Source: Escherichia virus TH22
Strand: one strand, 5' to 3'
Length of the DNA: 64,000 bases
Sequence record: MT446396.1
The position numbers and the translations under genes were made by a program. Of this stretch, positions 40,164-50,358 are shown one piece after another; position 1 is the first letter of the stretch; each line of letters opens with the position of its first letter. The notes beneath the pieces are model-generated. The model was not told the DNA's origin and did no database searches. It saw nothing but the letters and a program-made list of their open reading frames with translations.

Positions 40164-40340
40164 TGGATTTATTTGAACTTTTTGAAGAGCCTAAAGCTCC
40201 TACGGAAGCCCGTGTGGACCTAGTTGACGAACTTGATGCGATTATACAGAAGCACGGTTTTAGCCTCCCAATGGAAGTTCTACGCGACCTGGCCTCATAT
40301 TACGATGACCCACCTCCATGGGCACCATGGGTGAAACAAT
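40164..40340 (+). CDS. hypothetical acidic protein
   Basis: 58 aa; below track cutoff. Confidence 0.25.
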
Positions 40341-40587
40341 GAACTGGTTAACAAATATTCCCACATCGGCGCTGGATATCGACCGTAAACATGCTCATAA
40401 GGAAATCGAGCAACAAAAAATTAATCGTTTACAAAGGCTTAAGACTGAATCCGAGACAATTAAAGTCGAAACCCCGATAAAATCGAAAAGTTCTTACTCA
40501 TCATATCAATCTCCATCATACCAATCTCCGATTGGTATGGCCGTAGACATTGCAGTCTTTGGCGTTCCACTTGGAGTGTTTAAGTAG
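40339..40587 (+). CDS. hypothetical protein with Ser/Tyr-rich segment
   Basis: 82 aa; SSYSSYQSPSYQSP then hydrophobic tail. Confidence 0.3.
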   Translation: MNWLTNIPTSALDIDRKHAHKEIEQQKINRLQRLKTESETIKVETPIKSKSSYSSYQSPSYQSPIGMAVDIAVFGVPLGVFK

Positions 40588-41998: not shown

Positions 41999-42745
41999 AT
42001 GACTTTATCAAAAACCAAAACGCTGAAAGTTAAACGTCGCCTGGAACACACTCAAGCTTCTGCTAAACGTCGTGGCAAGGACTTTAACCTGGATTTCAAT
42101 TACCTGGTTAACATTCTTGACCAAAAAGTTTGTGCTTATTCTGGTGAAACATTTAATAACTCTATTGAAGGTGAGAAGTTATCATTAGAGCGTTTTAACA
42201 ATGACATTGGTTATATCAAAGGTAATGTTATTCCTGTTAAAAAGAAATACAACACCATGCGTTCTGATTGGTCCCTGGATGAGCTTAAACAACGTCGTGA
42301 TGATGTTGCTGTAAAAATTGCTCGTCCATCTGTCAAGAAGATTGAAAAGTTAAATCTGACTGCAGAGAAATGGGAACAGATTAAAAAGTCATATACCCAT
42401 ATCAAGAACATCCAACACAAACGTGAGAATCGCGTTAAGCATTATGCTCAAATGAGTAAATCAGAGCAGTCCAAAGAAAACCAATTAAAAATGGTTGCTC
42501 TGAAGGCTCGCATTGATGGTTCCCGTATTGCGGAAGGTCATGAGCTTACTAAATTGAACGTCTTGCTCAAAGGTAATGACTGGAAAGTTACCAAGAAATT
42601 AACTAATGCTGAAACGCTTTTTGATTGCTATGATAAAATCATTCAAGGTCTTGAGCGTTTTGAGAAGATTGGTTTTATTGGTAAATTAAAACTGAAACGT
42701 GGTCTGCCTTTGAACGCGTCAATTTTTAAACTGATTAGAGGTTAA
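41999..42745 (+). CDS. srd: Srd-like protein (by synteny) with degenerate HNH-like N-terminal module
   Basis: 248 aa between mod genes and dda; CAYSG...LSLERFNNDIGYIKGNV resembles an HNH motif lacking catalytic His; Lys-rich C-terminal half. Confidence 0.35.
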   Translation: MTLSKTKTLKVKRRLEHTQASAKRRGKDFNLDFNYLVNILDQKVCAYSGETFNNSIEGEKLSLERFNNDIGYIKGNVIPVKKKYNTMRSDWSLDELKQRRDDVAVKIARPSVKKIEKLNLTAEKWEQIKKSYTHIKNIQHKRENRVKHYAQMSKSEQSKENQLKMVALKARIDGSRIAEGHELTKLNVLLKGNDWKVTKKLTNAETLFDCYDKIIQGLERFEKIGFIGKLKLKRGLPLNASIFKLIRG

Positions 42746-42746
42746 T

Positions 42747-43046
42747 GTGATGTACTACGCATATGTGCTGGTCCACAAAGATAAAGATGGTTTTGAACAC
42801 CCATTGGAGTATGATGGAAAGGTTACCTTATACACCACAAAAGTGGGCGCAGAATATGAACTTGCCAACTATTCATATACTACAAGCCGCTATTTACGCA
42901 TGGGACGTATTGAAACAGTATGCACACCTAGAAAATGGTGGTTTGATAAGTGGGAAACAAAAACTGTTTTTCCTACTGAAGAACACGCACGAGAATTGAA
43001 ATTAATTTTAGATACTTTATATGTTAAGCGAGTAAAATTGGCATGA
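42747..43046 (+). CDS. hypothetical protein
   Basis: 99-aa ORF coupled to dda. Confidence 0.35.
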   Translation: MMYYAYVLVHKDKDGFEHPLEYDGKVTLYTTKVGAEYELANYSYTTSRYLRMGRIETVCTPRKWWFDKWETKTVFPTEEHARELKLILDTLYVKRVKLA

Positions 43047-44371
43047 TTAAATTTGAAGACTTGAACACAGGACAAAAAGAAGCTTTTGATTATATTACTG
43101 AAGCTATTCAGCGACGTTCAGGGGAATGTATCACTCTGAATGGTCCAGCTGGCACAGGTAAGACCACTCTGACAAAATTTGTCATTGACCACTTAGTGCG
43201 TAATGGAGTTATGGGAATTGTGCTTGCTGCACCAACTCACCAGGCGAAAAAAGTTTTATCTAAATTGTCTGGTCAAACAGCGAATACAATCCATAGTATC
43301 TTGAAGATTAACCCAACGACATATGAAGACCAAAACGTTTTTGAACAGCGCGAAATGCCTGACATGTCAAAATGCAATGTTCTGGTTTGTGATGAAGCAA
43401 GTATGTATGACGGGTCTCTGTTTAAGATTATTCTTAACTCTGTTCCTGAATGGTGCACTATTCTTGGAATTGGTGATATGCACCAGCTGCAGCCAGTTGA
43501 CCCGGGAAGCACACAGCAAAAGATAAGCCCGTTCTTTACGCATCCTAAGTTCAAACAGATTCATCTGACTGAGGTCATGCGAAGCAATGCTCCTATCATT
43601 GAAGTGGCGACAGAAATTCGCAATGGCGGCTGGTTCCGTGACTGTATGTATGAAGGTCATGGCGTGCAAGGTTTCACCTCACAAACCGCTTTAAAGGATT
43701 TCATGGTAAACTATTTCAGTATTGTAAAAGATGCTGATATGTTGATGGAAAACAGGATGTATGCATACACGAATAAATCAGTTGAAAAACTGAACAATAT
43801 TATTCGTCGCAAGCTCTATGAAACGGATAAAGCATTTTTACCGTATGAAGTCCTGGTTATGCAAGAGCCGCACATGAAAGAGCTGGAATTTGAAGGTAAG
43901 AAATTCAGCGAAACCATTTTTAATAATGGTCAGTTGGTTCGCATCAAGGATTGCAAATACACTTCCACTATTCTCCGCTGTAAAGGCGAATCGCACCAGT
44001 TAGTGATTAATTACTGGGACCTGGAAGTTGAGTCAATTGATGAAGATGAAGAATATCAGGTTGACCGCATCAAAGTTTTACCAGAAGACCAGCAACCAAA
44101 ATTCCAGGCATATCTGGCGAAAGTTGCTGACACATACAAACAGATGAAAGCCGCTGGTAAACGTCCAGAGTGGAAAGACTTCTGGAAAGCGCGCAGGACC
44201 TTCTTGAAAGTCCGTGCTCTTCCGGTCAGTACAATCCACAAGGCCCAAGGCGTTTCAGTGGACAAAGCATTCATCTATACTCCATGCATCCATATGGCCG
44301 AAGCTTCATTAGCGAGCCAGTTGGCTTATGTTGGAATCACACGAGCGAGGTACGACGCATATTATGTATAA
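43043..44371 (+). CDS. dda: DNA helicase Dda (SF1)
   Basis: 442 aa; Walker A GPAGTGKTT, DEASM; collinear with T4 Dda. Confidence 0.9.
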   Translation: MIKFEDLNTGQKEAFDYITEAIQRRSGECITLNGPAGTGKTTLTKFVIDHLVRNGVMGIVLAAPTHQAKKVLSKLSGQTANTIHSILKINPTTYEDQNVFEQREMPDMSKCNVLVCDEASMYDGSLFKIILNSVPEWCTILGIGDMHQLQPVDPGSTQQKISPFFTHPKFKQIHLTEVMRSNAPIIEVATEIRNGGWFRDCMYEGHGVQGFTSQTALKDFMVNYFSIVKDADMLMENRMYAYTNKSVEKLNNIIRRKLYETDKAFLPYEVLVMQEPHMKELEFEGKKFSETIFNNGQLVRIKDCKYTSTILRCKGESHQLVINYWDLEVESIDEDEEYQVDRIKVLPEDQQPKFQAYLAKVADTYKQMKAAGKRPEWKDFWKARRTFLKVRALPVSTIHKAQGVSVDKAFIYTPCIHMAEASLASQLAYVGITRARYDAYYV

Positions 44372-44609
44372 AGTACATAAAGAAGATTTAGATAATCTTA
44401 TCTATGGTATTCAGGACGCGGTTGAATTTTTCGAAGATAATCCGACTATCGTCGTGCAGGGTAATTACGTTTTGCTGGAACTGAATCTTATTCGGAAACG
44501 TATGGCCGCGATTGAATATTTTAACAATGAAGAGCCAGGGATTTTTATCTCCGACTATGTTGCTGGTGAAATTCAGAAATTAAAAGAGATGTGCGATGGT
44601 TGCTGGTGA
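44364..44609 (+). CDS. hypothetical protein (3' end extended by tandem duplication)
   Basis: 81 aa from ATG overlapping dda stop; C-terminus runs through the 40-bp duplication. Confidence 0.35.
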   Translation: MYKVHKEDLDNLIYGIQDAVEFFEDNPTIVVQGNYVLLELNLIRKRMAAIEYFNNEEPGIFISDYVAGEIQKLKEMCDGCW

Positions 44610-44640
44610 AATTCAAAAATTAAAAGAGATGTGCGATGAT
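44561..44640 (+). repeat. tandem direct duplication, 2 x 40 bp (38/40 identical)
   Basis: TGCTGGTGAAATTCAGAAATTAAAAGAGATGTGCGATGGT followed by TGCTGGTGAAATTCAAAAATTAAAAGAGATGTGCGATGAT; copy 2 carries the dexA SD and ATG. Confidence 0.9.
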
Positions 44641-45319
44641 TGATGCTATTATTGACTTTGAAACTCTGGGAAACGGCTCGAAGGGAGCCGTTATTGACCT
44701 GGCTCTGATTACATTCGAATCTGACCCTGCTATTGTGGAATCATTCGAAACCCTGGTTAATCGCGGCAAACGTATCAAGTTTAGCCTTGAATACCAAAAA
44801 GGTAAGCGTCTGTTCGATACAACAACCATGGGTTGGTGGAAAAAGCAATCAGCAGAAGCCCGTGTTAACTTGGCTCCTTCTGCGCAAGATGTTGATACTC
44901 TGACCGGTATCCAACAGGCAATTGATTATCTGAATGGTAATGGAATTAACAAATACGAAAGCCTTATGTGGTGTCGTGGAATGTCTTTTGACTTCCCGTT
45001 GTTTGTTGACCTTATCCGTGACCTACAGCGCAATGAGGGTATTCCCGAGCGTGAATTGAATACCTATGGCCTGGAGCCGGTTGTATTCTGGAACCAGCGA
45101 GATATCAGGACAGCAATCGAAGCCCTATCACTCGTCCGTAAGATGTGTGAAACTCCATTACCAAAGGGGACTTTAGATGGATTTGTGGCGCATGATTCGG
45201 TGCATGACTGCGCGAAAGATATTTTGATGCTTAAGTACGCCCAGCGCTATGCTCTTGGTTTAGATGAAGTTCCTTCCGAAGAAGATGCAGACCCGTTATC
45301 TTTACCGAAAAAACGATAA
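44636..45319 (+). CDS. dexA: exonuclease A (DnaQ/DEDD-like)
   Basis: 227 aa; exo I motif IIDFETLG, C-terminal HDSVHDC; downstream of dda as in T4. Confidence 0.8.
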   Translation: MIDAIIDFETLGNGSKGAVIDLALITFESDPAIVESFETLVNRGKRIKFSLEYQKGKRLFDTTTMGWWKKQSAEARVNLAPSAQDVDTLTGIQQAIDYLNGNGINKYESLMWCRGMSFDFPLFVDLIRDLQRNEGIPERELNTYGLEPVVFWNQRDIRTAIEALSLVRKMCETPLPKGTLDGFVAHDSVHDCAKDILMLKYAQRYALGLDEVPSEEDADPLSLPKKR

Positions 45320-48525: not shown

Positions 48526-50358
48526 ATGATGATTAATAATGAAATTAAAGTACTCTCGGACGTCGAGCATATCAAAAAACGTTCCGGGATGTATATTGGT
48601 TCCAGTTCAAATGAAGCGCATGAGCGATTCTTGTTTGGTGAATATAAGTCCGTAAGCTATGTTCCTGGTATTGTAAAACTGATTGATGAAATTATTGATA
48701 ACTCTGTTGATGAAGCAATTCGCACCAGTTTTAAATTTGCCAATAAAATTGATGTTCAAATTAAAGACAATCAGATTTCGGTTTCTGATAATGGCCGTGG
48801 TATTCCACAAGCAATGGTTACAGACCAAAACGGTGAACAAATCCCTGGCCCTGTTGCAGCATGGACTATTCCAAAAGCAGGTGGCAACTTCGGTGATGAT
48901 GCTGAACGTAAAACTGGCGGGATGAATGGCGTCGGGTCTTCTCTGACCAATATTTTCTCTGTATTGTTCACCGGGATTACCGCTGATGGTGCAAATGAAA
49001 TCACCGTTAACTGCTCCAATGGTATGGAAAACAAAGGTTGGTCTACCAAGAAATCTAAGGGTAAAGGTACAACTGTTATTTTTGTTCCGGACTTCAGTCA
49101 CTTTGAAGAAAATAGTCTGTCCCAGATTTATCTGGATATTACATTGGACCGTCTGCAGACTCTTGCGGTTGTTTATCCGGATATTCAGTTTACCTTTAAT
49201 GGTAAAAAGGTTGATGGCAATTTCAAGAAGTTCGCCAAGCAATTCGGAACCGAAGTTGTTATCCAGGAAACTGATACAGTATCGATGGCCTTTACGACTA
49301 GCCCGGATGGTTTCCGCCAGTTGACTTATGTCAACAACATTCATACAAAGAATGGTGGGCACCACGTTGAATGTGTTATGGATGATATCTGTGAACATCT
49401 TCAGCCAGCCATTAAACGCAAATATAAAGGCATTGAGGTGACAAAGGCACGAGTTAAAGAATGCCTCACCATGCTTATGTTCATCCGCGATATGAGCAAC
49501 ATGCGATTTGATTCCCAGACTAAGGAGCGATTGACTTCTCCGGCTGGTGAAATTCGAAATCACATTAAGATTGATGCCAAGAAAATCGCACAAGCTATTC
49601 TGAAAAATGAACCGCTGATTATGCCGATTGTTGAAGCTGCATTAGCCCGTAAATTGGCTGCAGAGAAAGCAGCAGAGACCAAGGCGAATAAGAAAGCTTC
49701 AAAGGCCAAGGTGCAAAAGCATATCAAGGCTAACGAATGGGGCAATGATAAGCTGGAAACGACTCTGTTCCTGACCGAAGGTGATTCTGCAACCGGTCCA
49801 TTTATCAAGGTCCGCGACCGTGAATTACAAGGTGCTTATCCGTTACGTGGTAAGTTCAAAAACACATGGGGTCTGAAAGCTGTTGACGTTATGAAGAACG
49901 CCGAAGCCTTTGATGTTTGTGCGATTACTGGTTTAACGATTGGACAACCGGCCGAGAATATGAATTACCGAAACATTGCTATCATGACAGATGCGGATGT
50001 GGATGGTGTTGGTAGTATCTATCCATCGTTATTGGCGTTTTTCAGTAACTGGCCGGAGCTGTTCCATGAAGGGCGAATTCGCTTTGTGAAAACTCCTGTT
50101 ATTATTGCGCAGCTCAAAGATAAACAAGAATGGTTTTATTCTCTTCCTGATTATGAAGAAGCTAAGGATAAACTTCCGAAGCATACTATCAGATATATAA
50201 AGGGACTTGGTTCTCTGGAAGATGCCGAGTACAAACGCGTATTGCTCGAACCGGTATTCGAAGTTGTTCAATTGCCCGACAACTGGAAAGAACTGTTCGA
50301 AATGCTCTTCGGTAAAGATTCCCAGCAGCGTAAAGATTGGATGAATGCAACACTATAA
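48526..50358 (+). CDS. 39: DNA topoisomerase II large subunit (GyrB-like), fused 39+60 type
   Basis: 610 aa; GHKL ATPase and TOPRIM; single uninterrupted ORF covering the part T4 encodes separately as gene 60. Confidence 0.9.
   Translation: MMINNEIKVLSDVEHIKKRSGMYIGSSSNEAHERFLFGEYKSVSYVPGIVKLIDEIIDNSVDEAIRTSFKFANKIDVQIKDNQISVSDNGRGIPQAMVTDQNGEQIPGPVAAWTIPKAGGNFGDDAERKTGGMNGVGSSLTNIFSVLFTGITADGANEITVNCSNGMENKGWSTKKSKGKGTTVIFVPDFSHFEENSLSQIYLDITLDRLQTLAVVYPDIQFTFNGKKVDGNFKKFAKQFGTEVVIQETDTVSMAFTTSPDGFRQLTYVNNIHTKNGGHHVECVMDDICEHLQPAIKRKYKGIEVTKARVKECLTMLMFIRDMSNMRFDSQTKERLTSPAGEIRNHIKIDAKKIAQAILKNEPLIMPIVEAALARKLAAEKAAETKANKKASKAKVQKHIKANEWGNDKLETTLFLTEGDSATGPFIKVRDRELQGAYPLRGKFKNTWGLKAVDVMKNAEAFDVCAITGLTIGQPAENMNYRNIAIMTDADVDGVGSIYPSLLAFFSNWPELFHEGRIRFVKTPVIIAQLKDKQEWFYSLPDYEEAKDKLPKHTIRYIKGLGSLEDAEYKRVLLEPVFEVVQLPDNWKELFEMLFGKDSQQRKDWMNATL

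Follow-up and report, generated by a model that had tools for sequence, protein, structure and literature searches.

The DNA analysed here, a stretch of 64,000 nucleotides from Escherichia virus TH22 (MT446396.1; referred to below as the window), carries a tandem duplication of 40 bp at the junction between a DexA.2-like gene and the exonuclease gene dexA. This duplication is a genuine, heritable and common polymorphism, which is present in about one third of the genomes. With a probability of roughly 0.6 we infer from the sequence that it is a near-neutral, long-lived polymorphism in which the direct stop/start coupling of the two genes would be replaced by a two-step relay.

Gene neighbourhood and register of the repeat

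The window belongs to a Gaprivervirus, a VR7/SP18-like relative of phage T4 and member of the Tevenvirinae. The genes concerned lie on the plus strand in the order dda, DexA.2-like gene, dexA. The dda helicase gene (43043 to 44371; phrog_325, PF18343 Dda SH3) shares an ATGA overlap at its start with the preceding ORF dda.1, and its TAA stop overlaps the start of the DexA.2-like gene by 8 nt (ATGTATAA). The DexA.2-like ORF (44364 to 44609) encodes 81 aa and was assigned to phrog_5263 (function unknown), whose profile covers only residues 1-78. It is followed by dexA (44636 to 45319), which encodes the 3'-5' exonuclease A of 227 aa (phrog_255, PF16473) and bears this name in related records.

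In public records the DexA.2-like ORF begins either at ATG 44328 (93/91 aa) or at ATG 44364 (81/79 aa). The Shine-Dalgarno match is strong at 44364 (-7.3 kcal/mol), compared to -2.7 kcal/mol at 44328. Together with the 8-nt overlap with the dda stop, this indicates that 44364 is probably the real start. For the DexA.2-like protein a precomputed index lists PF26837 (Phage_T4_Y00H_G), while our local Pfam-A scan gave no match at E <= 0.01; a difference between Pfam releases is the likely explanation.

The start codon of dexA is preceded at a distance of 7 nt by a weak Shine-Dalgarno-like AAGAG (44624 to 44628, plus strand), whose duplex with the anti-Shine-Dalgarno sequence reaches -2.9 kcal/mol, compared to a median of -4.7 kcal/mol for 54 ORFs of the window. 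Between 44364, where the DexA.2-like gene starts, and the dexA start at 44636 we detected neither a promoter-like nor a terminator-like site; terminator-like sites were absent from the whole scanned region. The sole promoter-like match from dda to dexA (44336-44365) finishes at the DexA.2-like start. Lacking a promoter-like site of its own and having only a weak Shine-Dalgarno sequence, dexA probably depends on termination-reinitiation coupling. By its layout, the locus appears as an early-gene chain joined through stop/start overlaps.

Some further features of the surroundings were recorded. The Dda.1-like ORF in front of dda (42747-43046) carries the annotation 'mobile nuclease' in Yersinia phage vB_YenM_P8 and is called hypothetical in other genomes; the ORF preceding it (41999-42745) is annotated as Srd anti-sigma factor. 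About 37 nt past its ATG, dexA contains an inverted repeat with perfect arms of 8 bp and a loop of 5 nt (AACGGCTC / GAGCCGTT, 44672-44692). The ORF following dexA has two alternative annotated starts among the genomes. Downstream of dexA, about 1.8-2.7 kb past the duplication, the genomes vary as well: motB is annotated with 483-504 nt in some and with 555-561 nt in others, and a cef annotation is absent in UPEC01 and present in the others.

Tandem Repeats Finder reported a period of 40 bp with 2.1 copies at 44559-44642 (95% matches, score 154). An independent repeat search found the copies 44559-44598 and 44599-44638 arranged head-to-tail without spacer, at a spacing of 40 and with 98% identity (97.5% in direct comparison of copy 1 with copy 2). 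The unit matched the window twice, compared to 0 matches expected from 100 dinucleotide-preserving shuffles. The two consecutive 40-bp units described in the first-pass annotation are thus confirmed. Among the tandem repeats of the 64-kb window, this is the only one that spans a gene junction; the others, a 15-bp unit in 2.1 copies (40499-40529) and a 24-bp unit in 1.9 copies (48669-48714), lie off gene junctions within the long ORFs 40318-40587 and 48526-50358, respectively.

The number of differences between the copies depends on the register that is chosen. When the unit is read as GTTG...GCGATG, the lone mismatch is G at 44576 (copy 1) versus A at 44616 (copy 2). Copy 1 (44559 to 44598, plus strand; GTTGCTGGTGAAATTCAGAAATTAAAAGAGATGTGCGATG) codes for the DexA.2 residues VAGEIQKLKEMCD and supplies the first base of the following codon. 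Its last base is the G of a duplicated dexA-type ATG, which is preceded at 7 nt by the duplicated weak AAGAG (44584 to 44588, plus strand; -2.9 kcal/mol as well), and its sequence equals the commonest single-copy allele. Copy 2 (44599 to 44638, plus strand) contains the new DexA.2 tail and stop, the Shine-Dalgarno-like AAGAG and the ATG of dexA. The duplicated segment therefore comprises the final 13 DexA.2 codons together with the Shine-Dalgarno sequence and the ATG of dexA, and in this register no point mutation is required at the junction. The first-pass annotation had given the coordinates 44561-44640 and two differences. Its own register corresponds to 44560-44639 (44560-44599 and 44600-44639), one base further left, and in the most economical register, again one base further left, one mismatch is left. 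The second difference, ATGG versus ATGA, is merely the first base of the next copy.

Distribution and history of the duplication

A megablast search against 50,697 phage records yielded 33 records representing 27 distinct genomes, all of them Gaprivervirus-like. The comparison with sibling genomes, which had been proposed as a check in the first-pass annotation, revealed two copies in 9 of the 27 GenBank genomes (locus span 501 bp; TH55, UPEC07, ECML-359, TH41, MN01, TH54, TH57, UPEC01 and VR20) and one copy in the other 18 (461 bp). The two-copy isolates originate from the USA, Uganda, Bangladesh and Lithuania. In all two-copy genomes fetched the junction is identical, with GCGATG joined to GTTGCTGG (ATG to GTTG). 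In this search VR20, UPEC01 and DCP80 showed two matching places, the other records one.

The exact 81-aa protein ending in ...GCW was indexed in 31 blocks of an assembly collection. Among the 24 contigs read were the ENA metagenomes ERZ28618124, ERZ27274741 and ERZ27235397 as well as Logan assemblies of the SRA runs SRR11772948 and SRR29999943. Two copies were present at all ten assembly places listed, with flanks deviating from the window at 1 to 204 of 3246 nt (up to 6%). One SRA run possibly represents the raw data of a TH phage; the metagenome contigs and five isolation sources are independent. A scan of IMG/VR for the junction returned only VR20, VR26 and VR25, each already in GenBank, and a metagenome scan one further single-copy allele (OBRI01000375.1) and one chance match (L028). 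In a non-exhaustive literature search, including a query for the VR-phage genome papers that returned nothing relevant, we found no published mention of the duplication.

DexA.2-like homologues occur in Karamvirus phages with about 33% identity. In the Karamvirus CC31, which served as outgroup, dda is followed by the homologous small ORF and by dexA; the unit is present in single copy (ending ...FVAGNIREFKEMT and stop), and the small ORF and dexA share an ATGA overlap. A single copy combined with an overlap in CC31 and in 18 genomes indicates that one copy is the ancestral state. In a first whole-locus alignment with MAFFT the position of the 40-bp gap was inconsistent for ECML-359 and MN01, and the locus was re-analysed with the repeat excised by means of anchors.

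The 15 two-copy alleles examined fall into five copy haplotypes, with variable positions at unit indices 4, 8, 17 and 35. At index 35 all combinations (C/C, C/T, T/C and T/T) were observed, and in one allele both copies are identical. A C-to-T change at index 4 is confined to copy 2, where it occurs in two different alleles, indicating that it arose later than the duplication. The junction is the same in 15 of 15 alleles, and the flanks are mosaic; judged by the flanks, the allele closest to a two-copy allele often has a single copy. The flank divergence from the single-copy neighbour was 0.0% for the window versus EAWsc9 and YenP8, 1.0% for VR20 versus phage 212 and 1.6% for UPEC01 versus DK-13. 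Variants otherwise specific for copy 2 also occur in single-copy alleles: A at index 17 in M719, and T at index 35 in DK-13 and in one contig from a metagenome. By their flanks, M719 and DK-13 lie close to two-copy alleles that share the respective variant, a pattern that is expected if deletion between the copies regenerates single-copy alleles. Moreover, the duplication and SNPs located 4 and 7 bp to its left occur in all four gametes, which calls for conversion tracts of very short length, or else for losses or gains that recurred.

On grounds of parsimony, the duplication most likely had a single origin in a Gaprivervirus ancestor, in a blunt illegitimate or slippage event without usable microhomology. 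Recombination appears to have moved it onto many flanking backgrounds, and it was probably lost repeatedly through copy-to-copy deletion. Exact look-ups in the window background returned neither a ...CDDCW intermediate (a junction change from A to G after an event at TTG microhomology) nor the product of a 39-bp in-frame duplication, nor read-through forms whose end overlaps dexA in ATGA. These results weakly favour the model of a blunt, mutation-free junction.

Other histories have to be weighed against this one. It is extremely improbable that the genome truly holds one copy and that the assembler duplicated the 40 bp, since the identical junction was found in nine GenBank genomes from at least four countries, contigs from metagenomes and SRA runs produced by other assemblers contain two copies, too, and the differences from copy to copy and between genomes are structured, unlike those of a copy-paste error. 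The first-pass annotation had suggested a recent event. A slippage private to the window genome would agree with the 97.5% identity of the copies and with flanks identical to those of single-copy EAWsc9 and YenP8. Nevertheless, the same junction recurs in nine other isolates and in ENA and Logan assemblies; 15 two-copy alleles share it on flanks up to 6% diverged; the copies show several variant combinations; and mutations such as the change at index 4 postdate the duplication. The single-copy twins of the window are better read as derivatives of deletion or conversion, and we regard a recent private event as very improbable.

Alternatively it might be that the identical duplication recurs on different backgrounds at a mutational hotspot. 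The immediate flanks of the two-copy alleles represent at least three haplotypes, the four gametes formed with the SNPs 4-7 bp away could reflect repeated gains, and one metagenomic allele, in which both copies are T-type and identical and the left flank is T-type and DK-13-like, looks like a fresh duplication. Against this, a mutation-free register without microhomology at the junction offers nothing that would steer repeated events to the same base, and some copy pairs, e.g. C/T at index 8 combined with T at index 4, would not result if any known single-copy allele were freshly duplicated. T4-type phages recombine very actively, and such recombination gives a mosaic pattern without repeated gains. 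A hotspot is therefore decidedly unlikely in our view, and a single origin followed by recombination and repeated loss is preferred.

Reading frames and probable coupling to dexA

In the single-copy relatives DexA.2 ends with ...KLKEMCDD, and its TGA overlaps the ATG of dexA by 8 nt in ATGATTGA. The stop/start overlap in these relatives and in CC31 supports the view of the first-pass annotation that the duplication lies across a translational-coupling junction. Since 40 equals 3n+1, the DexA.2 frame is shifted at the junction of the copies. The DexA.2 of the window ends with ...KLKEMCDGCW at TGA 44607-44609 in copy 2, in line with the earlier reading, and a gap of 26 nt (44610 to 44635, plus strand) separates its stop from the dexA start in place of the 8-nt overlap of single-copy phages.

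By the same 3n+1 shift, the ATG of copy 1 (44596) is placed in the ancestral frame of DexA.2 within copy 2. The duplication thereby produces a mini-ORF (44596 to 44643, plus strand) consisting of the ATG, 14 further codons and TGA, with the peptide MVAGEIQKLKEMCDD. Its start overlaps the end of DexA.2 by 14 nt (44596-44609), and it stops at the ancestral TGA (44641-44643), so that its end and dexA, from the ATG at 44636 onwards, overlap by 8 nt in ATGATTGA. Hence, DexA.2 and dexA do not overlap in the window as they do in the single-copy relatives, while the overlap typical of a coupled pair is found at both steps from DexA.2 via the mini-ORF to dexA. That copy 2 holds the dexA ATG within a stop/start overlap had been recognised before. 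In contrast, the ATG of copy 1, which had been described as altered, is intact (44596-44598) and preceded by the same AAGAG, so that it opens the 15-codon ORF. The overlapping stop of copy 1, likewise described as altered, is lost due to the junction rather than to a point mutation. The first-pass annotation had thus overlooked the mini-ORF, which could relay coupling to dexA.

In none of the 15 two-copy alleles examined is the mini-ORF interrupted; in two of them, both metagenomic, it reads MVVGEIQ... (A to V). The two copy-2 variants found in GenBank are synonymous in its frame. Both occur in single-copy alleles, too, and consequently give no information on selection acting on the mini-ORF. 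As a separate observation, single-copy alleles and copy 1 are polymorphic at unit index 8 (T/C, GGT/GGC; 44567 and 44607 in the window). The corresponding base of copy 2 is the T of the DexA.2 stop TGA, and a C would lengthen DexA.2 to ...GCWRNS(K/E)IKRDVR, restoring an ATGA overlap with dexA. An exact-sequence look-up returned no allele with this extended form.

In reporter pairs of E. coli, reinitiation drops steeply with the distance between stop and start, with a loss of 80-100% at +38 nt and variable values at +2 and +14 nt (PMC10666635). Displacement of a stop codon is described as favouring the nearest start (review PMC12548453). Direct coupling of DexA.2 to dexA across 26 nt would accordingly be expected to be poor, and the start nearest to the DexA.2 stop is the ATG at 44596, 11 nt upstream of it. 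Ribosomes finishing DexA.2, or starting afresh at the duplicated ribosome-binding site, may use this ATG, translate 15 codons, reach the ancestral ATGATTGA, terminate there and reinitiate at dexA. Such a two-step relay would retain coupling, probably in a somewhat attenuated form. The use of ATG 44596 is put forward with due caution, its Shine-Dalgarno sequence being weak and the peptide not strictly conserved. The earlier suggestion that coupling efficiency may change is plausible, since the upstream stop is shifted away from the dexA start.

If coupling is retained in this way and the three-residue change at the unconserved DexA.2 tail is harmless, fitness should hardly change, and this would account for the long coexistence of one-copy and two-copy alleles. 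Furthermore, dexA is reportedly dispensable for T4 in the laboratory, so that even a large change in coupling might show little effect.

We also considered a structural RNA, i.e. a regulator, an attenuator or a member of a known family. Four RNA folds of the locus gave z-scores of -0.18 to 1.12 and thus no significant structure, the opening energy of the ribosome-binding site was similar in one-copy and two-copy alleles, with differences of no more than about 2 kcal/mol and of inconsistent direction, and the best match in an Rfam search scored 12.9 bits compared to a gathering score of 40. Predicted structure thus showed no meaningful contrast between the alleles, and a structural explanation was dropped.

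Instead of being near-neutral, the duplication might be an adaptive regulatory variant that retunes or uncouples the DexA dose, provides DexA.2 with a CxxC-like tail (CDGCW) or yields an active free peptide of 15 residues that copies the DexA.2 C-terminus. A frequency of about one third, the persistence of a direct repeat that can be deleted and a mini-ORF open in 15 of 15 alleles speak for this possibility. The dose of DexA could matter in view of its dual role, as the enzyme acts in the scavenging of host DNA and on the phage's own modified DNA (PMC12153337). Its behaviour is also reported to vary with temperature (PMC12153337). On the other hand, no selection signature was extracted, one-copy and two-copy alleles coexist on near-identical backgrounds, the peptide varies (A to V), and deletion of a 40-bp repeat may be too rare for purging. 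We therefore consider an adaptive variant unlikely. Its more specific form, a selected relay cistron in which a tunable two-step coupling sets another DexA dose and the free peptide or the CDGCW tail is active in addition, is quite unlikely; if true, the one-copy and two-copy states would form a balanced, reversible expression switch in wild Gaprivervirus with rare gain and frequent loss.

The chance that the repeat serves as a recoding signal, by which a hop from copy 1 to copy 2 as in T4 gene 60 or a frameshift restores the ...CDD end, is practically negligible. Owing to the repeat, each codon of copy 1 does have an identical triplet 40 nt downstream. However, the last sense codon UGG (44604-44606) finds no matching UGG landing codon in the gap, the predicted folds contain no stable hairpin (z-scores 0.24 to 1.12), a slippery heptamer is absent and all Rfam families stay below threshold. 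A near-neutral polymorphism with a putative relay through the mini-ORF is thus the reading that we prefer.

The locus offers a natural experiment on coupling, in which near-isogenic wild phages differ solely by the 40-bp duplication: in one state the genes overlap directly by 8 nt, in the other the original overlap is re-established by a 15-codon mini-ORF that spans the gap of 26 nt. A comparison of a window-type phage with EAWsc9 or YenP8 would show how far a relay cistron maintains coupling in a real phage operon and whether the dose of DexA matters. With regard to annotation, the C-terminus of the DexA.2-like protein occurs in two natural forms, ...CDD and ...CDGCW, and the unannotated mini-ORF is worth considering in ribosome profiling and peptidomics of Gaprivervirus-type phages. 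Beyond the coupling test and annotation, the duplication is an ordinary structural polymorphism.

Comparison with known systems

Like the bypass in gene 60 of T4, the locus belongs to a T4-type phage and contains a short untranslated stretch after a stop codon in a formerly continuous coding sequence. In contrast to gene 60, there is neither a matched pair of take-off and landing codons nor a hairpin, and the gap is a by-product of the duplication. A bypass of this type was rejected, as the UGG-UGA at 44604-44609 is not followed by a UGG in the gap and no significant structure was found.

Short tandem duplications and their deletions are a classic class of spontaneous mutations in the rII system of T4. 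The repeat described here resembles them in being a head-to-tail duplication by which a non-essential early gene is shifted in frame and which recombination between the copies can remove. Unlike them, it is a widespread natural polymorphism rather than a laboratory mutant, and its effects on the frame are self-compensating.

Termination-reinitiation coupling in bacteria and phages takes place at overlapping stop and start codons such as ATGA, TGATG and longer forms. With coupling of this type the locus shares the ancestral junction of DexA.2 and dexA, which overlap by 8 nt in ATGATTGA (ATGA in CC31), the overlaps of dda.1 with dda and of dda with DexA.2, and the weak Shine-Dalgarno sequence of dexA. 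In the two-copy state the junction of mini-ORF and dexA retains the exact ancestral overlap, whereas the full-length upstream gene stops 26 nt short of dexA. E. coli reporters with spacings of +14 to +38 nt show a strong fall-off of reinitiation over such distances (PMC10666635).

At the level of sequence, the mini-ORF itself is similar to the leader of synthetic bicistronic designs and to natural short leader cistrons, as a putative leader of 15 codons whose stop overlaps the start of the gene. The leader of a bicistronic design combines three elements, a Shine-Dalgarno sequence of its own, a second one within its coding sequence and a stop located at the start of the gene (bioRxiv 10.1101/2023.02.09.527918). 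All three are present here, with AAGAG at 44584-44588 in front of ATG 44596, AAGAG at 44624-44628 inside the mini-ORF and TGA at 44641-44643. Unlike the designed leaders, the mini-ORF arose naturally by duplication, both Shine-Dalgarno sequences are the same weak AAGAG, and it overlaps the end of the preceding gene, thus forming a middle link in a chain of genes rather than a 5' leader.
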